A stretch of DNA of 29,098 nt from an uncultured Eubacteriales bacterium (GTDB lineage Bacteria; Bacillota; Clostridia; Oscillospirales; Acutalibacteraceae): contig CAYQRS010000001.1 in the NCBI GenBank assembly GCA_964419825.1, positions 1 to 29,098 of the forward strand, read 5' to 3'. The position numbers were made by a program, and so were the translations under genes. Positions 1-20,395 of this stretch are shown here, piece after piece (the stretch's first letter is position 1; the number at the start of each line of letters is the position of its first letter). The notes beneath the pieces are model-generated. The model was not told the origin of the DNA and made no database searches. It saw nothing but the letters and a program-made list of their open reading frames with translations.

Positions 1-550
1 GCTCAATGAGGATAACCCAAACGGGCTTTCTGCCGGGCTGAGTGCCGAAGATATAGGGCAGCTCAAGAACAGAAACATCAAAGCTTTCGTCAGCGTAGGA
101 GAAAGCAAGCTCTTCCTGATCGACACGGCTGCGGATGTAGGGATGCTTTTCTGTGAGCTTCATATCGGGGCGCTCTTTTGCAAGGTATGAGAAGTATGAG
201 CCGAGGATAACGGCGCTCTTCATACCAACTTCCTTACAAAGGGGAAGAATACGCTTGAGGGGAGCGATGTTGAATTTGTAGTAAGCATCGTAAACGGGAG
301 CGGGGAATTCAACACGCTCGTCAACGCCTGCGGCGAAAACGAAGCAATCATAGCCCTGAAGCATAGCCTTGATTTCATCGTCTGATTTATCATAGATGTT
401 GCAAAGCTCAATATCCATCTCCTTGGGGATGGGTGCGCCTTCGGGAAGAGGGGGGAGAGCAACGCTCTTAACCTCATGACCGCGCTCGATAAAAATGCGT
501 GCAGCTTCACAGCCCAAAAGACCGGTGCCGCCAATCATAAATACTTTCAT
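1..550 (-). CDS. NAD(P)-dependent epimerase/dehydratase (extended SDR), truncated by the window edge
   Basis: Absent from the ORF track because it has no stop in the window. Manual translation from ATG at 550 gives MKVFMIGGTGLLG (GxxGxxG Rossmann motif), FAAG, YxxxR-like HPYIRSR and LELPYIFG; the frame stays open to position 1. Confidence 0.85.
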   Translation of the reverse strand, partial: MKVFMIGGTGLLGCEAARIFIERGHEVKSVALPPLPEGAPIPKEMDIELCNIYDKSDDEIKAMLQGYDCFVFAAGVDERVEFPAPVYDAYYKFNIAPLKRILPLCKEVGMKSAVILGSYFSYLAKERPDMKLTEKHPYIRSRVDQEELAFSYADESFDVSVLELPYIFGTQPGRKPVWVILIE

Positions 551-583: not shown

Positions 584-1393
584 TTAGCCTTGTGCGTAAG
601 CACCGACCATCATCATATAATCACCAAGCTGAGCGCCGAATTCGGGTGCGCCGTCCATAATCAGCTTGCCTGCCTTGACCGATTCAATCATATCGTCGGT
701 TTGCATAAGTATGCCAAGTGCGCTGTCAAAATTATCGAAGCGCATTGTGAAGAACGGCATTGCACGCTTGTATTCGCCACGACCTGCTCTTGATTTGCCT
801 GCCTTGATGCGGATGTAAGCGCTGACCTCAGGATGATCGTTAACAGCCCAAGCGTAAACACGGTCGGGGCTTTTTGAGGTCCAGCCGTGAACAGTCTCGT
901 GACCGTTCTTGTTAAGGGTGCTGATGCCGCTTGAAAGCAGGTAAAAATAGCACTTAACAAGGAGCTTTTTCTCATCAGGATCCTTTGGCGGTTCTTTTGC
1001 GCCGAGCAGGTTGGCCATTTTCAAAAGCACCATCAGGAACGAAACGAATGCGCCCGTGTGCTTTGCGATGCCCTTCATTTTCGGCAGATATTGCGGCTTG
1101 ATTTCACCCTTGAAAAAGGCATTGAGAGCTTCGATGCTCTTGAATTCAAGCTCGACGTGTGCGTTGTCGGTCAGTTTATCGGTGTGGATGAGCCATTCGC
1201 CGTTGTTAACAACAAAATGTGTGCCGACCTTGCCCTCCGGAACATCGGGGCAGAGTGCACTGACCTGATAAACTGTGTGTGCGTGCTCGAATTTCTTTTT
1301 AAGGCTCGGAACATCCGTTGCGAGAACCTTTACAAGCGGCAGAGCGGCACAGAGGAAGATTTTATTGGTATAAATATCATCTTTTGTTGACAT
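584..1393 (-). CDS. Hypothetical protein with two SCP2 (sterol carrier protein-2)-like repeats
   Basis: ORF 584..1402; an AAGAGG RBS favours ATG at 1393. C-terminus MRFDNFDSALGILMQTDDMIESVKAGKLIMDG resembles the SCP2 tail; N-half ELEFKSIEALNAFFKGEI repeats the pattern. Domain call is by eye. Confidence 0.6.
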   Translation of the reverse strand: MSTKDDIYTNKIFLCAALPLVKVLATDVPSLKKKFEHAHTVYQVSALCPDVPEGKVGTHFVVNNGEWLIHTDKLTDNAHVELEFKSIEALNAFFKGEIKPQYLPKMKGIAKHTGAFVSFLMVLLKMANLLGAKEPPKDPDEKKLLVKCYFYLLSSGISTLNKNGHETVHGWTSKSPDRVYAWAVNDHPEVSAYIRIKAGKSRAGRGEYKRAMPFFTMRFDNFDSALGILMQTDDMIESVKAGKLIMDGAPEFGAQLGDYMMMVGAYAQG

Positions 1394-1405
1394 TCTATTC
1401 ACCTC

Positions 1406-2416
1406 TTAAACTTCGTCTTCCCAATCATCGTCAAGCTCGAAATCTGCGTTCATTGCTTCACGAACTGCGGCGATGATGCCGTTTGAATCGATGCCGAGGA
1501 TTGACATAATATCCTCATGCAAGCCGATGGGTGCGAATTGGTCATTGATGCCGAGGCGTTTGAATGCACAGCCCTTGCCTGTTTCGGCAATAACCTCGCC
1601 GACAGCCGAGCCAAGACCGCCGAGAATTGTGTGATCCTCAACCGTGATAATGCGGCGAGTTTCCTGAATTGCCTTAACAACAGCCTCACGGTCGAGCGGC
1701 TTGATTGTGTGCATATTGAGAACACGAACCTTTAAGCCGTCTGCATTTTCGAGGAAGTTGGCGGCCTGAAGAGCCTGAAAAGCGCAAGAACCGCAAGCGA
1801 TAACCGTAATATCAGTACCCTCGTGGAGCTGAACTGCCTTGCCGACCTCGAAGCCGTAATCTGTGTTTTCGTAAAGAACACGGTCGAAGCCACGGTTAAT
1901 ACGGATGTAGTAAGGACCCGGGTTCTCATAAGCGGCACGGACAGCGTTAACAGTTTCCATACCGTCTGCGGGACAAATCAGGGTGATGTTCGGCATTGAG
2001 CGAACAACTGCCATATCGCAGATTGCGTGGTGAGTTGAGCCTGCCTGACCGAAGGATGTACCTGAATGGGTTGCAATGATTTTTGCGTTAACATTCTGGT
2101 AGCAAATATCCGTGTGGAGCTGGTCTGCACTGCGCAGAGAAGCGAAAACGGAGAAGGTTGAAAGGAACGGCACAAGACCTGCCTTTGCCATACCTGCGGC
2201 AACGCCGAACATATTCTGCTCTGCAATGCCGACATTGAAGTATCTGTCGGGGAAGTGCTCGCCGAACATACCGATTTTTGTCGATTTGCCGAGGTCTGCG
2301 GTGAGCGCAACAACATCATCGTGCTGTTCGCCAAGCTCAACAAGAGCCTTGCCGTAATATTCCGCCGTTGAAAGAGCGGTTGATTCGGTTGCAGTATAAG
2401 TTAATCCGCCTGCCAT
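1406..2416 (-). CDS. Split transketolase-like enzyme, C-terminal (pyrimidine-binding) subunit
   Basis: 336 aa with ADLGKS, VGIAEQN, THSG..GSTHH, RINRG, HTIKPLD and EDHTILGGLGS motifs. Confidence 0.92.
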   Translation of the reverse strand: MAGGLTYTATESTALSTAEYYGKALVELGEQHDDVVALTADLGKSTKIGMFGEHFPDRYFNVGIAEQNMFGVAAGMAKAGLVPFLSTFSVFASLRSADQLHTDICYQNVNAKIIATHSGTSFGQAGSTHHAICDMAVVRSMPNITLICPADGMETVNAVRAAYENPGPYYIRINRGFDRVLYENTDYGFEVGKAVQLHEGTDITVIACGSCAFQALQAANFLENADGLKVRVLNMHTIKPLDREAVVKAIQETRRIITVEDHTILGGLGSAVGEVIAETGKGCAFKRLGINDQFAPIGLHEDIMSILGIDSNGIIAAVREAMNADFELDDDWEDEV

Positions 2417-2418
2417 AA

Positions 2419-3288
2419 TTATGCGCCCTCCTTTTCTGCTCGTTCGCAGCGTTTTTTGTATGCGGCCTCAAGGCTTGCCTTAGCGAGGTTGTAACGCTCC
2501 TCGTTAAGTGCGCCGTAGTGCCAGTTGTAATCGTTTTCCATAAAGTCGATGCAGCAGCCCTTGACTGTGTTTGCAACAATCATGGTCGGCTTCTCATCGT
2601 GAGCGAGTGCGTAATCAATAGCGTCGCAAAGCTCGCTGATGTTGTTGCCGTCAACCTCGATAACGTGCATACCGAAGGCACGCCATTTGTCGCAGAAGGG
2701 TTCAAGCTTCATAACCTCTTCTGTCGGACCGTCAATCATACATTTGTTGCGGTCAACGAAGCTGATAACGTTACTGATGTTGAAGTGGGCGATTGTCATT
2801 GCGGCTTCCCAGTTAGAGCCTTCGTCACATTCGCCGTCGCCGAGGATGCAGAAGGTTTTGTAATCCTTGCCCTTAAGCTTTGCGGCAAGAGCCATACCTG
2901 CGGCAATGGAAAGACCGTGACCGAGCGAGCCTGTTGAAGCGTCAACGCCGATAACCTTGTTTGAATCAAGATGGATGCCCATCTTTGAGTTAGTGAGGTT
3001 AAAGGTTTTGAGCTGTTCGGGGTCATTGAAGCCGTAATCGACGAGTACGGGCGCATAAGCGATGCCTGCGTGACCCTTACTCATAACGAAACGGTCTCTG
3101 TCCTCCCAGTTGGGGTTGTTTTTGTCAAGGCGCATATATTTGTGGTACAGTACGGTCATCATATCCATAACGCTCATACCGCCGCCGATGTGACCGCTGC
3201 CTGCCCAATATGTAGTGTCGAGGCAGAGGTTACGCAGCTCAAACGCCTTTTTTTCAAGGGCTAACCATTCGTCTTTTTTTAATGGCAT
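2419..3288 (-). CDS. Split transketolase-like enzyme, N-terminal ThDP-binding subunit
   Basis: 289 aa with SGHIGG, DRFVMSKGH, GSLGHG and the ThDP motif GDGECDEG...N; directly upstream of the C-terminal subunit. Confidence 0.93.
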   Translation of the reverse strand: MPLKKDEWLALEKKAFELRNLCLDTTYWAGSGHIGGGMSVMDMMTVLYHKYMRLDKNNPNWEDRDRFVMSKGHAGIAYAPVLVDYGFNDPEQLKTFNLTNSKMGIHLDSNKVIGVDASTGSLGHGLSIAAGMALAAKLKGKDYKTFCILGDGECDEGSNWEAAMTIAHFNISNVISFVDRNKCMIDGPTEEVMKLEPFCDKWRAFGMHVIEVDGNNISELCDAIDYALAHDEKPTMIVANTVKGCCIDFMENDYNWHYGALNEERYNLAKASLEAAYKKRCERAEKEGA

Positions 3289-3329: not shown

Positions 3330-4592
3330 TTAAAACAGTTCGGGGTGATTTGCCGCAACGGTTTTGAATGCTTCGTCAGAAATCTCCAGAGTGAGGTTGA
3401 TATCCTCATCGGTGAGGGCGGCATTGATGAAGTGGTTGTGGTGGCTTGCGAAGAATACGCCTCTCTTAACACATTCGGCAACCCATTCCTGATGGAGCAT
3501 CATTGAGTTGTCGTTTGCGATTCTGAAATAGAACAGCGAGGGCTCGCCCGAAACAACAAGGTCGAAGCCGTTGTTTGCCGCTGTTGCTTTAAGACCGTTT
3601 GTGAGCTTGAGTCCCTTTTCACGGAAGAGGGCGGGTGCGTTGATTTCTTTAAGCTTGTTGATGCAGGTGATGCCTGCGGCAAAGGGAATTGAGCTTAACC
3701 AATAGCTGCCTGTGTAGCTCAGGGAGCTGACTGCGCTCTTGAGCGAGTCCTTACCGCAAAGGCAACTTACATTCCAGCCGTTTGCAATCGCCTTGCAGAA
3801 GCAGATGAGGTCTGCCTCAAAGCCGTAATAATGGTCTGAGCCTGCAAGGTCAAGGCGGAAGCCCGCACGAACGTCGTCAACGATGAGGACGATGCCCTTG
3901 CGTGTGCAAAGCTCACGAACCTTTTGCCAATAGCCGTCGGCAGGAAGCTCATTGTCACGGTAGTTGCCGTGCATATAGGGCGTTGCGATGAATGCGGCAA
4001 CCTCGTTTTCGTTGTCGGAAACCAGCTTTTCGAGTGCTTCAAAATCGTTCCAATCAACATAGAGGTTGTTTTCAACATCCTCAGGGATAACGCCAGGGTA
4101 ATCGAGCTTCTGAGTCCAAGGCGAAACGCCGTGATAGAAGCCGTTTACGAAGATGATTTTTTTGCGGTTGGTTGCTGCACGGGCTGTCATAATTGCACAG
4201 GTTGTAACATCGTTGCCGTTCTTTGCAAAGAATGCCCAATCGGCGCTTGCAACCGTGTCAACCATAAGCTCTGCAAATTCAACCATTACCTTGCCGGGTG
4301 CGGTCGTGCAGTTGCCGAGCTTTGCCTGAGCGGCTGCCGCAGCGTCAACCTCCTTGTCGCAATAGCCGAGAATGTTCGGACCGTATGCGCACATATAGTC
4401 GATAAAGCGGTTGCCGTCAACATCCCAAAAATAAGTGCCCTCTGCTTTTTCGGCGAAGAAGGGCCAAGCCGAAACGGGGATGAAGTTGCCCTCTGCAGGG
4501 CCGAGGTGACCGTAAACACCGGAGGGGATGACTTTTGTCGCACGGTTAAAGTATTCACGGCTCTTTGTGTAATCGTTAATCGGGAAACTCAT
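3330..4592 (-). CDS. Class III PLP aminotransferase, GSA-aminomutase-like but divergent
   Basis: 420 aa; DVDGNRFIDY, YGPNILG, GFYHG, DDVRAGFR and PLP lysine in FCKAIANG. Differs from HemL signatures (NSGTEA, DEVMTGFR, GKIIGGG). Confidence 0.88.
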   Translation of the reverse strand: MSFPINDYTKSREYFNRATKVIPSGVYGHLGPAEGNFIPVSAWPFFAEKAEGTYFWDVDGNRFIDYMCAYGPNILGYCDKEVDAAAAAQAKLGNCTTAPGKVMVEFAELMVDTVASADWAFFAKNGNDVTTCAIMTARAATNRKKIIFVNGFYHGVSPWTQKLDYPGVIPEDVENNLYVDWNDFEALEKLVSDNENEVAAFIATPYMHGNYRDNELPADGYWQKVRELCTRKGIVLIVDDVRAGFRLDLAGSDHYYGFEADLICFCKAIANGWNVSCLCGKDSLKSAVSSLSYTGSYWLSSIPFAAGITCINKLKEINAPALFREKGLKLTNGLKATAANNGFDLVVSGEPSLFYFRIANDNSMMLHQEWVAECVKRGVFFASHHNHFINAALTDEDINLTLEISDEAFKTVAANHPELF

Positions 4593-4608: not shown

Positions 4609-5385
4609 TTATGCTAAATACAGAGCAACTCTGTCGAGAATTCTGTTGAGGTTGTCGAGCATATTGATCATGCCCTTCATTTCGATCGTGCCTTCGCCGA
4701 TGCAGGCGAGGGAGTTAATCTTGCCGTCGAAAAGCTGCCTTGCCAGGTCGAGATTGTCGAACTGCATGATAGCTCTCGGATTTTCACAGCGCTGTTTAAC
4801 GGTGAGAAGCTTATGGTCCTTAACACGGATCGTTGCGGCAACATCGTCCTTGATGCCGAAGCTGATTTCGCCGTCGGGAATGAGGTGCGCCGAGAAAGTG
4901 CCCTTGAAATCGTTGTTGCCGATTTGTGAAAGTGCAACTGAGATTACATAGAACATCAGCCTTGTGCTTGTTTCGAAAAATTCTCTGTCCTCAAGTGCTT
5001 CGGGTGAGGGACGGAGCATCTCATTGAGTCTGTCGGTCAGCTTAACGAATTGCTTGAGCAGGAAGCCGATATGGCGGAAGCCCTTGGTCGGAATCGGGGT
5101 GGTTGTGCCCTCGATAAGACCGTTGAATTTTTCGCAGCTGCTGAACGGAAGCTTAACGTCGCAATCGAAACAGCCCTGCTCCATGCGGCAACGGCCGTTC
5201 TTGAAATAAAGCGTAGCTTTCGGACCGTCTGCAACATCGAAGCCGATTGAGATGGGCTTTGTGTTGGAAATCAGCGCCGAAGCAACGGTATCTATTTCAC
5301 AAAGGTTTTCAAGCGTGCCGAGGATAGCGTACATATTTATGTAGGCTAAGGTTTTTGAATCCGTCAAAGTGATTTTGTCTGTCAA
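4609..5385 (-). CDS. Hypothetical protein with two SCP2-like repeats
   Basis: 258 aa; TTG start 8 nt after AAGGAGG (5400-5394). C-terminus MQFDNLDLARQLFDGKINSLACIGEGTIEMKG is SCP2-like; the N-half repeats it (VKLPFSSCEKFNGLIEG). Confidence 0.6.
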   Translation of the reverse strand: MTDKITLTDSKTLAYINMYAILGTLENLCEIDTVASALISNTKPISIGFDVADGPKATLYFKNGRCRMEQGCFDCDVKLPFSSCEKFNGLIEGTTTPIPTKGFRHIGFLLKQFVKLTDRLNEMLRPSPEALEDREFFETSTRLMFYVISVALSQIGNNDFKGTFSAHLIPDGEISFGIKDDVAATIRVKDHKLLTVKQRCENPRAIMQFDNLDLARQLFDGKINSLACIGEGTIEMKGMINMLDNLNRILDRVALYLA

Positions 5386-9397: not shown

Positions 9398-11791
9398 TTA
9401 TTTCTTCTTTTTCTTTGCCGCTTTGAGGGCTTCAAGCTGTTCCTTTTCGGCTAATTTTTGCTTTGCCTGCTCATCGACCGCAGCTCTGTCGGCTTCCTCA
9501 GCCTGAGCCTTTGCGTGGTCGTAAAGGGCAAAAATTTCATCGAGATTGCTGTAGCTTTCTGCCTGAGCAATCAGCTTGACTGCGTTCAAATAAGGCTTTG
9601 CGGCACGGTTGAAGCGTGCGTGCTTATCCATTTCTGCCTTTGCATTTGCCTGAGCCGCTTTCTTTTCCTGCTGAGTGCGGCGGATTCTGATAATCAGCTC
9701 ACGCTTGGCATCGGCTTCGGTTTCGGCGTGCTTTTGCAGGTATAGCTTGCGGAGCTTTTCATCACATTCATCTTCCTCGGCAAAGCAGCCTTCCAGAGCC
9801 GCAAAATCGGGCTGAACAAAGCTTTCGGGGGTGGGGTAGTACTTCTTGATTGCCTTAATTGCCTCTTTCTTGCCGTGGGCAATTTCAATGGCAAAATGCC
9901 TGTATTCTCTTTCTGCCTCGGTTGCTTTCGGGAGCTTTCTTGCTTTAGCAAGCTCGGCGTTGATTTCGTCTGCATCAAGGTAATAAAGAGCCGCCAAGCC
10001 GCCCGAAACAAGCGCACGGCTTGCCTTTAGCTGGGATTGATAGAGCGGAGCGGAGAATTTATCAAGCTCTTGGCAAACAAGCTTTGAAATTTCGATTTCT
10101 TCGTTGAATTCAACAGCCTCTTTGTGGGCTTTTTTCGCAGCCTTACGCTCCTCCTTGTCCTTGATGGAGCGGTAGCTTCTGTCAACAGCCTTAGGCTCAA
10201 GGGCGGCTGTTTGCTTTGCGTGGTTGATGGTGTCGATGCCCTCAACCAAGCCACGGTTGTTGGTTATGCCGTTGTTGTGGTCCTCAAACATTGCACGGAT
10301 TTTCAGCACCCGAACGATGCTTCGCTGCTTGCGCTCGGTCAAATCGTAGAAGAAGTACGGAATGAGGTTGAGCGCCGCACCGATAGCGCCCATAAGCACG
10401 AGTGCTGTCAGAATCTTATATAAAAGTCCGGGCTCGCCTGTGTTTATGTCGAGAATATCGTAGGGGTTTTTGTAGCCGTTGTTTTCGTGTATGCCATATG
10501 ATTTGTAAACGAACGGCAGAACGCCCGAGGTGAAAAGCGTAACAATGTTGCCAATCGTCTGCACCGTTGCAAACATACCGTCAACACGCTCGCCCGTTTT
10601 GTATTGGTGGTAATCCCTGATGTCTGCTTGAATGGCAGGGGTTGTGATATGCTCGAAGGCGGTGAACAGCCAGTTCATATAAATGCAAATTGCAACCCAC
10701 CAAATGCTTTTGATGTTGATGAGCATTGCAAGAATACAGACGATGTTCATTGTGTTAACGCCGACAAGCGTTTTCTTTTTGCCGATTGCCTTGATGCAAA
10801 ACGGCGCAATAATCATGCCCCAAAGTGAGGCGTTGCTGACAACGGTGCGGATTATTCCGAGCGTGCCGCCCTCGCAAGCGTGACCGTAGGAGAACAGCCA
10901 ATCAAGAGCCGTTCCGTAAACGCCCTCAAGGAAGCCGAGCCAGCCTGCAAGGGCAATTATCCAAAAATACTTGTTCCTTGCAACCGCCTTGAAGGAGTCG
11001 ATGAAGCTGACCTGAATGATGTGGGTTTTTGCCTGCACGATTTTTTCCTTCGTGTTGGCGAAAACGATAACGGTCAGAGCCATGCCGATAATTGCGAAAA
11101 CAGGGTAGGAATAGCGATAAACTCGAATATCGTAAAGGTTGTTATCCGCAACAAGCTGTGCGATGATTGGCATAATCAGGCTGTAAATCGAGGGCGCAAG
11201 AGAATATACAACCGCTTTGATTGATAAAACATCGGTTCTCTCCTGCGTGTCGGGCGAAAGAACATGAACAAGGTTTGTGTAAGCATCGTTGAAGAAGTTG
11301 TAAAAGAACTGCAGCAGCAGGTTGAAAACGAGGATGACCGCACACATTGCGACATATCCGCCTGCTTTGCCGAAAATCGGCGAGGGGAAAATATCGTAAA
11401 GCTTATCGTAGGGGAACCAAACATAGAGAATGGAGATTATCGCCGTCGGCACGCCCATTGAAATGAGGAACGGGCGGTATTTGCCTGCCTTGTTGCGGCT
11501 GTTGTCAATCATCGTTGAACGCACCGCTGTGAGCGGAATGTTTGCCAAGGTCGAGATTATGTAAAGCACATACATATCCGTTGGCGAAACGCCGATTACG
11601 TTGCCGACGATTGCGTTGGTTGTGTTGACGATCAGGTTCATACCGAGCGTAATGATGAAATATGCGCCGATACCACCGCCTGCGTATGAGGCAATCTCCT
11701 TAAAAGTCATATATCGGCCCGGCGGCGGCATTTTCCAATAAGCCTTAACCTTGCCGAGAGTTTGTTCGATTTTGTTTCCCACGGTCAACAT
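9398..11791 (-). CDS. GPH/MelB-like MFS transporter with a long charged C-terminal extension
   Basis: 797 aa; about 12 TM segments in the first ~480 aa with DNSRNKAGKYRPF and ADIRDY..YKTGER.DG GPH motifs; the remaining ~310 aa are hydrophilic and K/E/A-rich. Confidence 0.85.
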   Translation of the reverse strand: MLTVGNKIEQTLGKVKAYWKMPPPGRYMTFKEIASYAGGGIGAYFIITLGMNLIVNTTNAIVGNVIGVSPTDMYVLYIISTLANIPLTAVRSTMIDNSRNKAGKYRPFLISMGVPTAIISILYVWFPYDKLYDIFPSPIFGKAGGYVAMCAVILVFNLLLQFFYNFFNDAYTNLVHVLSPDTQERTDVLSIKAVVYSLAPSIYSLIMPIIAQLVADNNLYDIRVYRYSYPVFAIIGMALTVIVFANTKEKIVQAKTHIIQVSFIDSFKAVARNKYFWIIALAGWLGFLEGVYGTALDWLFSYGHACEGGTLGIIRTVVSNASLWGMIIAPFCIKAIGKKKTLVGVNTMNIVCILAMLINIKSIWWVAICIYMNWLFTAFEHITTPAIQADIRDYHQYKTGERVDGMFATVQTIGNIVTLFTSGVLPFVYKSYGIHENNGYKNPYDILDINTGEPGLLYKILTALVLMGAIGAALNLIPYFFYDLTERKQRSIVRVLKIRAMFEDHNNGITNNRGLVEGIDTINHAKQTAALEPKAVDRSYRSIKDKEERKAAKKAHKEAVEFNEEIEISKLVCQELDKFSAPLYQSQLKASRALVSGGLAALYYLDADEINAELAKARKLPKATEAEREYRHFAIEIAHGKKEAIKAIKKYYPTPESFVQPDFAALEGCFAEEDECDEKLRKLYLQKHAETEADAKRELIIRIRRTQQEKKAAQANAKAEMDKHARFNRAAKPYLNAVKLIAQAESYSNLDEIFALYDHAKAQAEEADRAAVDEQAKQKLAEKEQLEALKAAKKKKK

Positions 11792-14782: not shown

Positions 14783-16579
14783 TCAGCCTGTGAAGCCTCT
14801 GTAGCCCAAGGTCTTGTTAAGGGCGGTGTTGATGCCCTTGAGGATTTTGCCGAGCACTTCGTTGCTCGAATCGTCCTTCGGAGCTTCTCTCAAGCCGAGT
14901 GCAACAAGTGCATCGGTGAGCTTTGCCTCGGCGGCTTCGTATTCGCCTGCAACAACAACCGTTGAAGCGAGCATTTTGTCGCAAGCTTCGATTGCTGAAT
15001 TGAGCATTTCACGCTCTGAGTCGGTGAGCGTTGTTTGGTCGATCGCCTTGGCATCCTTAAGCATACCCTTAATCAGCTTTTTGGTTTCTCTGCCAATGTT
15101 GAACTGTGGGAAATTCGGGTTTGAATAAACATCAGTCATTGCTTTGTCGGTCAGCAGAGCTGTCGATAATTTCATAATGACATCGTTTCTGCCCGTGCCC
15201 TCATGATCCTGACCGTAGAAGAAGAATGTCTGGTCGGGGAGGAGGCAGGTTGAAGCGTCAACCTCTCTGTCGGGCGAGATGTGGTTATGAGTGGGATCGG
15301 AGCAGTTGCTTGTGCCGAGCTTGTTTTTGTTCTTTTGAACATAGCTTTCGGGGTACTGCTCGCCGACAAGGCAGCTTTCAAGTCCCATACCTGTCGATTC
15401 GATTTGAATGATGCCGTCTGCATTGCAGGAGCTGAAGCTCGGAACAAGGCAGTAGAGCGGATAGCTGTAATCGACAACGTCAAAGACCTCAACGCCCATA
15501 TCCTTCATCTTTTGGATGTTTTTAAGGCTGTTGACCTGAGCCTCGTGATAGCGCAGAATTTGAGCCTGAACCTCGGTTTGAAGCTCGCTTGGGAACCATT
15601 TTGCGTATGCCTCGTCAAAATCCTCGCTCGGAACTAATGCCCACATATTTGTGCAGTTAACAAGCACATCGCCGACAAGCGAATTAACAATGCTGTCGAG
15701 GAATGAGCGGATAACCTTGCTGGGGAAAATGCGGATAAGTATGTTGATGAGGTTGCCTGTAACCTCGTCATCACAGAGGGTGGGGAAAAGGTAATCGTAA
15801 AGCATCTTATCCGAGGTGCTGAGCTTGCCTTTGAAAATATCGCCTACGATTTTACTGCCGTTGAGCGCAGGAACAATGTAGATAACTCTGTCAAGGCTCT
15901 GCATAACATCGGGATAATAATCAACCAAGCCGTTGGCGATTGTGCCGCCGAGGCTGATTGGGGTGAGGTTTACCTTATCGTGACCTGTTTCCTTTTTAAC
16001 CTGCTCGATGAATTCGTAAAGCTCTGCGCAGATTTCCGCATTGTTGCCGAACGAATTGTAAGCGAAGTAATAGAGGTGATCCTCGCCTGCGATTTGAGCG
16101 TAATCCTGCAGGGGAACATTGTCATAGATTTCCTCTTTTTCCTCTGCGGTGCAAAGTGCAACGCTCTGCGGATAACGCTTTGTGACGATGTTGTAGTTGT
16201 TCTTGCCGTTGTGGTCGAAGCTGTTCCATTTGAAAAGCTCCGCAACAACATCCTCTGCCGCATCGCAAAGTCCCATATCACGCTGGAAGAGCAGTGAGCT
16301 GAGGAGCGGAAGAACAAGCTTTTTGATTGCGTAATCGGTGTCCGTGTAAATCGGCCAGCCTGTAATCGGCTTGCCGTCAGCATCGTAGACCTGATTGCCG
16401 TTTTCATCTGCAAGGTAGGTTTGCGATTGGCCGATGCCGTGTACAACGATTGTCGGGGAATAATCGCAGCTGCCGCCGCAGGAGGTGAGAACACCTGTGC
16501 CTGCCGCACCCACGGTAGCGGGCACGGCAAGTGCGAGGACAAGCATAATTGAAATTACTTTAAAAAAGCGTTTTTTCAT
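14783..16579 (-). CDS. Secreted alpha/beta-hydrolase (lipase/acyltransferase-like)
   Basis: 598 aa; signal peptide; oxyanion VHGIG, nucleophile elbow PISLGG, ADGII (Asp) and QDHEG (His). Confidence 0.75.
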   Translation of the reverse strand: MKKRFFKVISIMLVLALAVPATVGAAGTGVLTSCGGSCDYSPTIVVHGIGQSQTYLADENGNQVYDADGKPITGWPIYTDTDYAIKKLVLPLLSSLLFQRDMGLCDAAEDVVAELFKWNSFDHNGKNNYNIVTKRYPQSVALCTAEEKEEIYDNVPLQDYAQIAGEDHLYYFAYNSFGNNAEICAELYEFIEQVKKETGHDKVNLTPISLGGTIANGLVDYYPDVMQSLDRVIYIVPALNGSKIVGDIFKGKLSTSDKMLYDYLFPTLCDDEVTGNLINILIRIFPSKVIRSFLDSIVNSLVGDVLVNCTNMWALVPSEDFDEAYAKWFPSELQTEVQAQILRYHEAQVNSLKNIQKMKDMGVEVFDVVDYSYPLYCLVPSFSSCNADGIIQIESTGMGLESCLVGEQYPESYVQKNKNKLGTSNCSDPTHNHISPDREVDASTCLLPDQTFFFYGQDHEGTGRNDVIMKLSTALLTDKAMTDVYSNPNFPQFNIGRETKKLIKGMLKDAKAIDQTTLTDSEREMLNSAIEACDKMLASTVVVAGEYEAAEAKLTDALVALGLREAPKDDSSNEVLGKILKGINTALNKTLGYRGFTG

Positions 16580-16592
16580 AATTCACAGCTCC

Positions 16593-18425
16593 TTAGAAAA
16601 GGTCTGAGAAGCCTTTAGGACCAACGAGCTTATACATAAGGTCGCTGAGGGTTTTAGCAAAGCCGGGATCCTGCTCCTTAGTAAGGCTGTCGATGTGAGA
16701 ATAGTTCATATAGCCTGCATCAGCAAGTGCGTTGTTGAGGCGGATTGTAACTCTGTTGACCTCAGCCGAATTGCCGATTGTTGCTGCCATAAGTGTTTCT
16801 GCCTCTGCAAGAGCAGCCTTGATTTCAGCTCTCTGAGCGTCGGTCATAACGAAGGATTCATCGGCAAGGCAAGCCTTTGCATCGTTCATATACCAGCGGC
16901 GGAGCTTTTTGTTGTTTGTGCCGTAGTTGAACTGAGGATATTTTTCGGGAGCTGAATCGATGTCCTTGATTTCGTTTTTGCAAAGAAGCTCAAGAACAAG
17001 GTTCATAGCAGGTGCTGTGTTGGCAGCATCCTCGTGGTGCATATCCTTGAAGAACCAAGTGTTGTTGGGGAGTGCGCAGGTGCTTGCATCGATATCAGCA
17101 TCGGGGCTGATGTATCTGTCGCCTGCGGTTACGCCGCTGAGCTTCTCACCGGGGAGAGCGGCTGTACAACCGATTGAGGTTGATTCGATGTTGATGATAG
17201 CATCGGAGTTGACCTTGTTTGTGCTGCCGATAACCTTGAAGAAAGCGTACTGAATGTCGCCTGTGTGGAGGTTGTAGCCGCAGATGTTGTTGACCTCACA
17301 GCCGTTATCCATCATATATTTGATGTTGCTTTCGAGGTTGATTCTTGCGGATTGGAACGCATCGAGCTTTTCACGCAGAACGGGGTATTTGTATGAGGGA
17401 ATTACCTTGTCGATGATTTCGGCATAGGTTTCCTTGCTGCACATTGCCCAAAGCTGGGGAACCTTTGTGAGCATATTGTTGTAAAGCACATCGTAAGCGG
17501 CAGTGAGAGTGCCCTCAAGCACGCTTCTGGGGAAAATGCGGATAAGTACGTTGATAAGGTAGCCGAGAGTCAATTCACCCTCGCCGCCGAGAATTTCGGG
17601 GAAGAGGTTTTTGTAGATATCCTCATCGCCGAGGCTCCAGCTACGCTTGTAGAAATCGTCAATAACATTTGTGCCGTTGAGAACAGCAACAACGTTAACG
17701 GCTCTTGAAACATCGTTCTTTTCCTTGAAAAGCTCGGTGTAAGCGGTGAAGAGTGTACCGCCGAGACTGACGGAGAGCAGGTTGACTTGATCCTTGCCTG
17801 TTTCTTTCTTAACCTTCTGGATGTATTCGTCAAGCTCTCTTGCTGATTCCATCGGGTCGCCTGCAAGGTTGAAGGTGAAGAAGAAAACATTTTCAGCGCC
17901 GATTTCGGCAACGAGGGGCTGAATCGGAACCATACGGCAGAACCACTCATACTGAGCCTCGTCAACAGCCTTAACAGTGCCATCTAAGGTTGAGCCTGCC
18001 ATTGAGCCGTAGCGGTAAACCTCGATGTTGTGGTAGGTGTTACCCTCATCGTCGGCTGACTGGTATTTGAAAGCTTCCTCGGCAATTTTTGTAACTGCCT
18101 TTGTCCAGCCCACATCGGATTGAAGTCCGAGTGTGAGCAGGAGGGGAAGAAGTGCGTATTTGATTGCAACGGGGATAAGTGCATCTGTGTCGAGAATAAT
18201 TGTCTGACTTTCGATTTTGTGACCCTTTGAGTTGAGGATCGGGTTGCCGTCTTCATCGGCAACATAAGCGAGTGAATGGTTGATACCCGGGAGAATGATA
18301 ACAGGATTGCTGCTTGTATCGCCGGATGTGGTTGAGCTGTCTGCGGTTACGCCGACCACGGCAACACCGCAAAGCAGGGCAACTGCAAGCACAACCGAAA
18401 TTATGCGTTTAACGGTTTTGTTCAT
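16593..18425 (-). CDS. Secreted alpha/beta-hydrolase, paralog of the adjacent gene
   Basis: 610 aa; signal peptide; LPGIN, SVSLGG, SDAII and MHHED; shares GNLINILIRIFP/GYLINVLIRIFP and DASTC.LP blocks with 14783..16579. Confidence 0.75.
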   Translation of the reverse strand: MNKTVKRIISVVLAVALLCGVAVVGVTADSSTTSGDTSSNPVIILPGINHSLAYVADEDGNPILNSKGHKIESQTIILDTDALIPVAIKYALLPLLLTLGLQSDVGWTKAVTKIAEEAFKYQSADDEGNTYHNIEVYRYGSMAGSTLDGTVKAVDEAQYEWFCRMVPIQPLVAEIGAENVFFFTFNLAGDPMESARELDEYIQKVKKETGKDQVNLLSVSLGGTLFTAYTELFKEKNDVSRAVNVVAVLNGTNVIDDFYKRSWSLGDEDIYKNLFPEILGGEGELTLGYLINVLIRIFPRSVLEGTLTAAYDVLYNNMLTKVPQLWAMCSKETYAEIIDKVIPSYKYPVLREKLDAFQSARINLESNIKYMMDNGCEVNNICGYNLHTGDIQYAFFKVIGSTNKVNSDAIINIESTSIGCTAALPGEKLSGVTAGDRYISPDADIDASTCALPNNTWFFKDMHHEDAANTAPAMNLVLELLCKNEIKDIDSAPEKYPQFNYGTNNKKLRRWYMNDAKACLADESFVMTDAQRAEIKAALAEAETLMAATIGNSAEVNRVTIRLNNALADAGYMNYSHIDSLTKEQDPGFAKTLSDLMYKLVGPKGFSDLF

Positions 18426-18445
18426 TGTTCAGTTTCCTCCAAAAA

Positions 18446-20395
18446 TTATCTGACTTCGTCAACAAGCTTCTCAAAAGCGTTCATAAGGATCGAACCTGAG
18501 CTTCTTGCAAAAGCGATTGATTCCTGATAGTGGTCGCCGAAAGGCTCAACATTATCGAAGAAGAGCAGGCAGTAATCGTTATCGTTGAGGATGTAGCCGA
18601 TTTCATCGTTTGCCAAGCCGAAGCAGAGAAGATGCTGACCTTCGGGAAGTGAAAGGACTTCGTCAGCGGTCTTTGCAGGGAAATCGCAGCCTGAGAATGA
18701 GTTTTCTGCTGAGATTGTGCCGCCGCCGTAGATGATTTCGGGGCTGACCTCGCCCGGCATCATAATTGCCTTGATGTTTTTGCCGAATTCAACATAGCCG
18801 ACCTCTGTGACGGTTGAATATGAGCCGTCGCCGTTGTCGAGGAGGGTGTGGTTAACAAGACCGAGCTTGCCGACAAGGAGAATGATGGGGTTCTCAACAG
18901 TAACAAAAACCTCTTTTGTTTTGATGTTGAGGATGGGTTCAACTCTTTCTTCCTCAACCTTTTCCCAGTTTTCGTACCAAACTGTGTATTTTCTCTCCTG
19001 ATCCTTGGTCTGTTCAACGCCCTGCTGAATCTGCTCAAGGCTGAAGTATTTTGTTTTGTAGTAGTTGTCGAGGATTTCCTGCTTGGTCTTGGTCATGCTC
19101 ATAACGAACATTGCCATTTCCTCGCCGTAGCGCTCTGCGTGCTGTGAGCGGCGCTCGTGCGGAAGCTCGTCGTTTGTCTGCGCTCTGTCGGGATAAATGC
19201 CGAGTGTTGCGCCGATGATGAACATGAAGTTATAACCGTTCTCGGTCATTGTTCTGTCCATTGCGGCTGTGTAGTCACCGCTGAGCTCCTTACCGCTTGA
19301 GTTATCGGTTTTAAGACCTGTGATGTAGGGGTGAGCGGGGATGTTGACGATCATTGTTTCCTTTGACTCACTGTTATCGGGATCGAAACGGAGGCGGTAG
19401 ACGTTGCCGTCATATTCGGAGGGGTCACGCTTATCGAAGAAATATTCGTCGCCGTTCTTTTCTGCATAGTAGAGGTCGCCCTTTTCCATGTTGTTGCAAG
19501 CCTCTTTGATTGATTCGGCTGTGCGCTCACGGAGAATGCTCATAAATTCTTCATCGGGGCCGCCCTGTGTCTTGAAGATGAGCTGGTTTGTCATTGCGGC
19601 AAGAGTGTTGTTGGCAATCTTGGAGAAGAAGGGATTCCAAAGACCCATTGTGTCGATTTCGCTGTGGCAATGGGTTGCGGTAACGTTAATGCTGATGATG
19701 TTGTTTGCCTTTGCAAAATCTGCAAGCATTTCACGGATTTGGCGGATATCTGCGTTGGAGATACCGATACATTCGATCGTGCTGAAGGCAACTGCGCCTG
19801 CGCCTGCATCCATAACAACAGTGTAAACCTTCATATCGTCAAGCACGGTTTCAACTGTGTTGGAAGGCAGGTTCTGAAGAAGATAGCCTGCAAGGTAGTA
19901 ATCCTTTTTGCCTGTGAGAATGTCATCGGGCAGGAGGCTCTTCTGGCTGTAGCCAAGCTGCCATTTGTCGCTTGTTGCACTGTCGGCAAAGGCTGTTGTG
20001 CCCGGCATAAAGCCCTTGCTGTCAAACTCGGAGATATCCTTGATGTTTGTGTTGGCAACTGCGGCAGAGCCTGCGAGCAGGTTGAGAACATCGTGGATAA
20101 CAAGCTCCATGTAAGTGAATGCAACTGTTTTCTTTTGCTGCTCCGTCTTTGCAGCAATCATTGCGCCGATTGCGCCGATCGGGCTTAAAAGGTTGTAGGA
20201 TTGACCGTTGATTTTAACATAAACGGGGTCCATAAATTTACGGTTGCAGTTGATTGAGCTGGGAATGAAAGAAGTATCAACTTCTTCGCTGTTCTGCTCA
20301 GGTGTTTCTGCGCTTGCAGACATACCGATTGCGACACATGAGAACATGAGCACAAGGCTGAGAACAAGAGCAATGAGTTTTTTTGCTGATTTCAT
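18446..20395 (-). CDS. Secreted neutral/alkaline ceramidase-like Zn amidohydrolase
   Basis: 649 aa; signal peptide; ATHCHS (cf. ATHTHSGP), PAHP, PGEVS (cf. PGEFT) and LANDEIGY in the order expected for the neutral-ceramidase fold. Confidence 0.7.
   Translation of the reverse strand: MKSAKKLIALVLSLVLMFSCVAIGMSASAETPEQNSEEVDTSFIPSSINCNRKFMDPVYVKINGQSYNLLSPIGAIGAMIAAKTEQQKKTVAFTYMELVIHDVLNLLAGSAAVANTNIKDISEFDSKGFMPGTTAFADSATSDKWQLGYSQKSLLPDDILTGKKDYYLAGYLLQNLPSNTVETVLDDMKVYTVVMDAGAGAVAFSTIECIGISNADIRQIREMLADFAKANNIISINVTATHCHSEIDTMGLWNPFFSKIANNTLAAMTNQLIFKTQGGPDEEFMSILRERTAESIKEACNNMEKGDLYYAEKNGDEYFFDKRDPSEYDGNVYRLRFDPDNSESKETMIVNIPAHPYITGLKTDNSSGKELSGDYTAAMDRTMTENGYNFMFIIGATLGIYPDRAQTNDELPHERRSQHAERYGEEMAMFVMSMTKTKQEILDNYYKTKYFSLEQIQQGVEQTKDQERKYTVWYENWEKVEEERVEPILNIKTKEVFVTVENPIILLVGKLGLVNHTLLDNGDGSYSTVTEVGYVEFGKNIKAIMMPGEVSPEIIYGGGTISAENSFSGCDFPAKTADEVLSLPEGQHLLCFGLANDEIGYILNDNDYCLLFFDNVEPFGDHYQESIAFARSSGSILMNAFEKLVDEVR

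Follow-up and report, generated by a model that had tools for sequence, protein, structure and literature searches.

The window analysed here, a stretch of 29,098 nucleotides (positions 1 to 29,098 of contig CAYQRS010000001.1, assembly GCA_964419825.1) from an uncultured Eubacteriales bacterium of the Acutalibacteraceae, encodes a split transketolase whose Pyr and C-terminal domain subunit (TK-C, 336 aa, 1406..2416 on the minus strand, as are all cassette features located below) carries alanine at the positions of both Asp469 and Arg358 of the E. coli enzyme. These replacements are conserved among orthologues and belong to a wider remodelling of the active site, and the gene stands in a syntenic cassette with an aminotransferase and two proteins of the SCP2 type. 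With evenly balanced confidence we propose that the channel of this thiamine diphosphate (ThDP)-dependent enzyme has been reshaped to accommodate a ketol/aldehyde pair that is hydrophobic and non-phosphorylated and lacks an alpha-hydroxyl group, on which the enzyme would act together with the FumI-like aminotransferase and two tandem-SCP2 carriers.

TK-C matches the Pfam families PF02779 (E = 3e-41) and PF02780 (E = 1e-26) and, in a phmmer search, 6yaj, the solved split transketolase of Carboxydothermus hydrogenoformans (ChTK, E = 2e-80). In the latter alignment ALSTAEYYGKALVELG of TK-C pairs with GIATREAYGKALVELG, placing STAE opposite ATRE, and THSGTSFGQAGSTHHAICDMA pairs with THAGLTVGEDGASHQAIEDLA, placing GQAGSTHH opposite GEDGASHQ. 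A MAFFT alignment of 272 sequences, consisting of E. coli TktA (Pyr and C-terminal part only) and 271 homologues, yields the following equivalences between TK-C and E. coli: A18 and R358, S45 and S385, E66 and E411, F88/F91 and F434/F437, H117 and H461, Q124 and E468, A125 and D469, H129 and H473, H130 and Q474, and R175 and R520. Reading of the DNA assigns Ala18 to the codon GCG at 2363..2365 and Ala125 to GCA at 2042..2044. The original prediction had placed alanine at these two sites by eye; HMMER and MAFFT both arrive at the same register, and in the multiple alignment with TktA and split transketolases neither Asp nor Arg returns to the D469 and R358 sites.

Relatives were found in at least 581 genomes in a scan of one genome per species, and the best 80 loci, from different species and 77–94% identical, form the orthologue set used throughout. 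Their hosts are nearly all metagenome-assembled genomes (MAGs) of gut or rumen Acutalibacteraceae, Oscillospiraceae or Clostridia, with Ruminococcus sp. CAG:563 also among them. Position 125 of TK-C is Ala in 80/80 orthologues, and position 18 is Ala in 76/80 and Ser in the other four. The source genome, a 1.75-Mb MAG that is 95% complete, contains on another contig a canonical split transketolase with the motifs KIATRESYG and GEDGASHQ, in which Arg and Asp are thus kept, and a separate 627-aa DXS-like open reading frame (ORF) on contig C38. Since the genome holds both, the window transketolase is an extra paralogue and not the housekeeping enzyme; and as Ala18 and Ala125 are conserved in 80 orthologues while the paralogue of the same genome keeps Arg and Asp, they are neither chance nor sequencing error.

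In a tree of representatives at 50% identity the clade falls within a group, supported at 0.99, whose members lack Arg358 as well as Asp469, and this group is nested, according to tree and MAFFT alignment, in a larger radiation of split-transketolase-like proteins with varied residues at the D469 position. Ala at this position is therefore fixed and derived in the clade, yet loss of the Asp is not rare within the family. Of the claim that the enzyme naturally carries Ala at both sites, the reality and the fixation stand, but not any uniqueness, as non-Asp residues at D469 are widespread in split transketolases. Split-transketolase-like representatives of 35–50% identity (P0126-P0271) show A, L, G, T, N, S, E, Y, W, V, F, H or Q at D469 and are varied at H461 as well, a diversity which suggests many uncharacterised specificities. 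The orthologues of the window enzyme themselves are patchily distributed, occurring in 7/399 sampled Clostridia genomes.

The two alanines, to which the original prediction had confined itself, are only part of the remodelling, as R91N, Q118H, G262Y, L466F, E468Q and Q474H had escaped notice. Compared with canonical enzymes the TK-C clade shows L466F, E468Q, D469A, P471S and Q474H in addition to R358A. Most of these map to the active-site loop H117-SGTSFGQAGSTH-H130 (2027..2068), delimited by alignment and orthologue conservation, in which F122 stands for L466, Q124 for E468, A125 for D469 and H130 for Q474 of E. coli, and H117 (H461) and H129 (H473) are retained. L42 (L382) is retained as well. 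The ThDP/Mg-binding PP-domain subunit TK-N (289 aa, 2419..3288; PF00456, E = 2e-48; 6yak, E = 4e-74) is altered too: according to the alignments, changes lie on either side of H100, and Asn97 (2998..3000) occupies the R91 position in 77/77 orthologues, His124 (2917..2919) the Q118 position in 77/77, changing GSLGQG to GSLGHG, and Tyr258 (2515..2517), beside the catalytic H261, the G262 position in 78/78.

In the E. coli enzyme D469 contacts the 2-hydroxyl group of the acceptor. The same residue binds H26 and, by a hydrogen bond/salt bridge, R91, both contributed by the partner subunit (PMC3657141, PMC5073344), and E468 forms a salt bridge with R520 (PMC3657141). Asp469 and its Arg91 partner are therefore both replaced in the window enzyme, where A125 and N97, fixed in the orthologues, take the place of the canonical pair. 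TK-C furthermore ends in an acidic tail, FELDDDWEDEV (residues 326–336, 1409..1441), which emerged from the clade comparison, is conserved across the clade with the pattern FExDDxWxDE and is missing from canonical split transketolases; its Trp (W332) is found wherever the tail aligned among the orthologues. The tail could be a motif by which a partner, for instance an SCP2 protein, docks.

Judged by alignment, all catalytic and cofactor residues are kept. TK-N contains the ThDP/Mg2+ motif LGDGECDEG...VDRN, and 77/77 orthologues share its residues D151 (E. coli D155), E156 (E160) and N181 (N185). The catalytic histidines are represented by H33, H73, H106 and H257 of TK-N (H26, H66, H100 and H261) and by H129 of TK-C (H473), and TK-C also keeps the activating Glu (E66, E. 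coli E411) and the stacking residues F88/F91 (F434/F437). S45, E66, F88, F91, H117, H129 and R175 of TK-C are invariant in the 80 orthologues. TK-N and TK-C most likely constitute a catalytically competent ThDP-dependent split transketolase paralogue. Their assembly into an alpha2beta2 enzyme with the active site between the subunits is likely, because the genes lie 2 nt apart (the TAA stop of TK-N ends 2 nt ahead of the TK-C ATG) and the identity to ChTK is about 50%. An identity as DXS was rejected in view of the retained H106 (H100), the split gene and the separate DXS-like ORF of the genome, and an identity as E1-beta was considered and rejected as well.

The retained residues also bear on donor and acceptor. 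In pyruvate-using DXS enzymes H100 is replaced by Phe or Tyr (PMC13663882), and E. coli transketolase required the exchange H100L to take pyruvate (PMC10787763); since H100 is retained as H106, the donor of the window enzyme probably bears a CH2OH group. The phosphate ligands of transketolases are R358, S385, H461 and R520 (PMC11387542), in agreement with the role in phosphate binding that the original prediction had ascribed to R358. Of this tetrad R358 is lost as described above, and S45, H117 and R175 (S385, H461 and R520) are kept in 80/80 orthologues, which may still allow a phosphorylated partner to bind. The earlier expectation of an unphosphorylated substrate was accordingly put too broadly: with three of the four ligands strictly retained, the term can apply to just one of the two substrates.

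For the E. coli variants D469A and D469T the gain in activity is limited to propionaldehyde, with a PA/GA ratio of 0.20 for D469A compared with 0.04 for the wild type (PMC3657141), which supports the logic connecting D469 variants with non-hydroxylated aliphatic aldehydes. The channel most likely accepts a hydrophobic aldehyde or ketol without a 2-hydroxyl group, and an ordinary, possibly phosphorylated C2 partner may still be used. A hydrophobic aldehyde without an alpha-hydroxyl group is a plausible substrate; the narrower assignment to a fatty aldehyde had been drawn from context and finds no counterpart in the cassette, which includes no conserved fatty-aldehyde enzyme.

The cassette comprises, in this order, a 258-aa SCP2-like protein (S258), the aminotransferase (AT), TK-N, TK-C and a 272-aa SCP2-fold protein (U272). 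The class-III aminotransferase (420 aa, 3330..4592; PF00202) has as its closest solved relative the aminopentol aminotransferase FumI (6hbs, E = 2.7e-89, 303 bits), compared with at most 154 bits for any glutamate-semialdehyde (GSA) aminomutase. FumI deaminates hydrolysed fumonisin B1 (HFB1), a sphinganine analogue, at C2 (PMC3136697). S258 (4609..5385) was assigned by a Pfam SCP2 match in its C-terminal half (E = 4.8e-4) and a protein-atlas match. U272 (584..1402), always located directly downstream of TK-C, gave no match in the Pfam scan, but is by its AF2 model (pLDDT 90.6) a tandem SCP2 fold, each half matching SCP2, UbiJ-SCP2 and alkylsulfatase SCP2 domains in Foldseek (probability 1.0, TM by target 0.5–0.6). 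S258 and U272 are distant paralogues (BLASTP, E = 5e-8).

The order S258-AT-TKN-TKC-U272 is intact in all of the best 80 loci not cut by contig ends, and it holds in relatives at 58–84% identity as well. Relatives at 50–64% identity likewise preserve the cassette, but with rearrangement. At 50% identity (L025) the cassette is split into the divergent modules TKN-TKC-272aa and SCP2-AT, and a distant lineage (L012) shows the arrangement TKN-TKC-268aa-299aa-AT adjoining a gene of the fatty-acid hydroxylase family. Beyond the cassette the flanks of the 80 loci are variable. In support of the aminodiol hypothesis mentioned in the original prediction, the transketolase has two tandem-SCP2-fold proteins and a FumI-like aminotransferase as constant companions, a context that points to a hydrophobic amine/ketol substrate.

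For the lipid, the order and direction of the steps and the acceptor of the C2 unit, we infer the following course. A long-chain 2-amino-1,3-diol resembling a sphingoid base would be deaminated at C2 by the aminotransferase, giving a 1,3-dihydroxy-2-ketone. The transketolase would then break the C2-C3 bond of this ketone, so that a long-chain aldehyde is freed and the C2 unit is held as glycolaldehyde-ThDP, from where it would pass to an ordinary aldose acceptor, maybe a sugar phosphate such as glyceraldehyde-3-phosphate. A phosphorylated acceptor may be considered because S385, H461 and R520 are retained. Both reactions, transamination and ketol transfer, are reversible.

Extended to the level of a pathway, the proposal would have Acutalibacteraceae/Oscillospiraceae of gut and rumen, together with some distant anaerobes, interconvert fatty aldehydes and sphingoid bases, or long-chain 2-amino-1,3-diols related to these, along an ATP-independent route. 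Transamination would be followed by transketolase cleavage between C2 and C3, with one tandem-SCP2 carrier per enzyme; this joint claim is tentative, and we lean somewhat against its holding in full. If true, the route would mirror in nature the synthetic transketolase-transaminase cascade and offer another way than the kinase/sphingosine-1-phosphate (S1P)-lyase route. It would furthermore represent a new gut fate for sphingoid bases, which are bioactive lipids of host, dietary and Bacteroides origin, and assign a function to a cassette that several hundred species-level genomes contain. In a literature search no transketolase/aminotransferase route for sphingoid bases, nor an SCP2-transketolase cluster, was found described. 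The residue change alone already has known precedents, and the greater novelty would lie in the pathway at operon level.

Several observations weigh against the proposal. By Cahn-Ingold-Prelog (CIP) reasoning, the ketol arising from natural D-erythro sphingoid bases would be (3R), but (3S) is the form that canonical transketolases make and cleave; a sphingoid substrate would consequently call for an inverted preference, an epimerising step or a threo configuration. Across the 80 loci the cassette has no constant neighbour among fatty-aldehyde, acyl or ceramide enzymes, nor one for aldehyde disposal, and genes of sugar type (class II aldolase, FGGY kinase) flank it in 11–17/80. Aldehyde:ferredoxin oxidoreductase (AFOR) is absent from the source genome and accompanies the cassette in just two distant relatives (L015, where it lies immediately upstream, and L023). 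In these two relatives, however, AFOR, joined in L023 by a flavoenzyme of the enoate-reductase type, counts in favour of the proposal as a neighbour able to handle aldehydes. SCP2 folds, moreover, bind non-lipid hydrophobic ligands too. Finally, a ceramidase and two lipases were considered for the three large ORFs at 14783-20395 and rejected: the alpha/beta-hydrolase matches in Pfam are weak (E = 3e-4 to 0.02), no ceramidase family is matched, and a PDB sequence search with the ORF at 18446-20395 gave no match. As these ORFs lack sequence support and are not syntenic, adjoining the cassette in only 1/80 related loci, they were not used as evidence.

Since both reactions are reversible, the cassette might run in the biosynthetic direction, such that a fatty aldehyde and a C2 unit, donated by a ketose phosphate or by hydroxypyruvate, are joined to the 1,3-dihydroxy-2-ketone and converted to a 2-amino-1,3-diol lipid, by which sphingoid-like bases would be made independently of serine palmitoyltransferase. 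The residue pattern suits an aliphatic acceptor aldehyde, which the AFOR beside distant relatives could make from the acid, and the fatty-acid hydroxylase family gene adjoining the L012 cassette fits in as well. We nevertheless regard this direction as decidedly unlikely. An acyl-ACP/CoA reductase, an N-acyltransferase or a head-group enzyme is not among the conserved neighbours of the cassette; FumI, the characterised enzyme nearest to the aminotransferase, serves catabolism; and the patchy occurrence in Clostridia is more in keeping with accessory salvage than with a core role in membrane biosynthesis. A related question is whether the hydrophobic substrate is sphingoid at all. An aromatic or medium-chain aldehyde/ketol, comparable to those of the anisomycin proteins AniP/AniQ/AniN, or a small amino-polyol with the SCP2-like proteins otherwise employed, would be compatible with AniP, which has Trp at the D469 position and no phosphate ligands (PMC11387542), with the aromatic aldehydes taken by E. 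coli transketolase variants at D469, R358, S385 and R520 (PMC7661550), with the protein of the short-chain dehydrogenase/reductase (SDR) family that follows the cassette here and elsewhere, and with the sugar-type genes flanking some cassettes. Against such a substrate, which we consider unlikely, stand the far closer relation of the aminotransferase to FumI (303 bits) than to other solved class-III enzymes, the two tandem SCP2-fold proteins as invariant partners, and the lack of conserved tailoring or natural-product genes nearby.

Two further explanations concern the reaction itself. The glycolaldehyde unit might be transferred to a heteroatom or a carrier instead of an aldose. Rif15 reportedly forms a C-O bond, and QncN/L and NapB/D are reported to transfer a glycolyl unit to a lipoyl/acyl carrier protein (ACP) system; unusual acceptors are met in several atypical split transketolases, and the clade under study lies inside a large radiation of split-transketolase-like proteins lacking D469. 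Such chemistry is very unlikely here, as no E2/lipoyl, ACP, nonribosomal peptide synthetase (NRPS) or polyketide synthase (PKS) genes occur near the cassettes examined and the residues for standard ketol transfer are all retained. That the protein is a redundant or drifting pentose-phosphate transketolase, whose alanines lack functional meaning, agrees with its family membership and its complete set of catalytic residues, but is scarcely credible given the canonical split transketolase in the same genome, the fixation of the substitutions (80/80 species for Ala125) together with coordinated partner changes, and operon partners that are invariant and unrelated to the pentose-phosphate pathway.

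In order to place the enzyme among known systems, it was compared with ChTK (6yaj/6yak, PMC7661550), which shares the two-gene architecture, the fold, the ThDP/Mg motif and the catalytic Glu and His. ChTK keeps R358, E468, D469, Q474, R91, Q118 and G262, where the window enzyme has Ala, Gln, Ala, His, Asn, His and Tyr, respectively; unlike ChTK, the latter has the acidic C-terminal tail and belongs to a non-sugar operon. A replacement of Asp469 by a small uncharged residue is likewise found in the engineered TktA variants D469A/T/S (also with R520Q and S385Y), whose hydrophobic surface is accompanied by higher activity on non-hydroxylated aldehydes (PMC3657141, PMC5073344, PMC10787763). These laboratory variants retain R91 and R358, and single changes destabilise the co-evolved network, whereas the window enzyme combines R91N and E468Q with retained R520 and S385. 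Should long-chain non-hydroxylated aldehydes or ketols indeed be handled, the enzyme would offer a scaffold, optimised by nature, for forming C-C bonds on lipophilic aldehydes, with the compensating exchanges R91N, E468Q and G262Y already in place, in the absence of which engineered D469 variants are destabilised. The natural split transketolase pQR2809 has wild-type Leu at the D469 position, where the window enzyme has Ala, and is a characterised biocatalyst with a broad range of aliphatic and aromatic acceptors (PMC13663882); it carries the equivalent of L382A, whereas L382 is kept here, and it is not known to belong to an aminotransferase/SCP2 operon.

Among the systems that pair with the cassette by context, FumI of Sphingopyxis sp. 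MTA144 (6hbs, PMC3136697), the closest solved homologue of the aminotransferase, acts at C2 of a long-chain 2-amino-3-ol sphinganine analogue to give a 2-ketone. Its substrate is 1-deoxy, so that the product is a methyl ketone and not a transketolase donor, and organism and operon differ from those of the window cassette. The transketolase-like AniP of anisomycin biosynthesis (AniP/AniQ/AniN, PMC11387542) dispenses with D469 and the phosphate ligands. Its substrate is hydrophobic and non-phosphorylated, and it invariably shares a cluster with the aminotransferase AniQ and the SDR AniN, with which it works. AniP is, however, a single chain without the His-rich transketolase motif and employs an aromatic 2-oxoacid donor, whereas the window enzyme retains all transketolase histidines and three of the four phosphate ligands. 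The sulfo-transketolase SqwGH (PMC11659671, PMC9594981) is also a specialised split paralogue of anaerobic gut Firmicutes acting on a non-phosphate substrate. According to the operon descriptions, which were the basis of this comparison, sulfo-transketolase operons carry a sulfoquinovose isomerase, a reductase and an exporter, all missing from the cassette, and mention no aminotransferase or SCP2 proteins, both of which are present here. An identity as sulfo-transketolase was rejected, and the operon context, with aminotransferase and SCP2 neighbours and no apiose or sulfoquinovose genes, does not match the descriptions of sulfo-transketolase or apulose-4-phosphate transketolase systems.

Downstream of U272 the window encodes, likewise on the minus strand, an extended SDR of the NAD epimerase/dehydratase family (2..550; PF01370) that runs off the contig; as an SDR follows the cassette in only 9/80 related loci, it may be taken as an optional sixth gene. 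The region 9398-11791 encodes a GPH/MFS_2-type transporter of 797 aa, the domain of which ends at about residue 500 and is followed by a long extra C-terminal region; it adjoins the cassette in only 1/80 related loci.

In one subclade (17/80 loci; L051:3240-4721, L073:1946-3166) the genes for a further class-III aminotransferase (493 aa), transcribed divergently, and for a protein with a double class-II aldolase domain (406 aa) are located just upstream of the cassette, and FGGY kinase and HAD genes lie downstream of it in 11–13 loci. These neighbours could be linked to the handling of a C2/C4 sugar product or could reflect lineage synteny. In the more distant relatives L009 and L023 a glyoxalase-family gene comes after the cassette. 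At L023:3246-8760 (genome G345, 64% identical) the cassette is followed by a glyoxalase/VOC gene, a fusion of OYE and pyridine-nucleotide-disulfide oxidoreductase, a TetR gene and AFOR; the fusion is of the enoate- or dienoyl-reductase type, and this gene set would fit the processing of a 2-enal product. In genome G009 another split transketolase pair (L025:5736-7492), also non-canonical but distinct from that of the cassette, directly adjoins the TKN-TKC-U272 module, and the TK-N of this additional pair has Asn at the position of E. coli R91 and Ser at that of G262.

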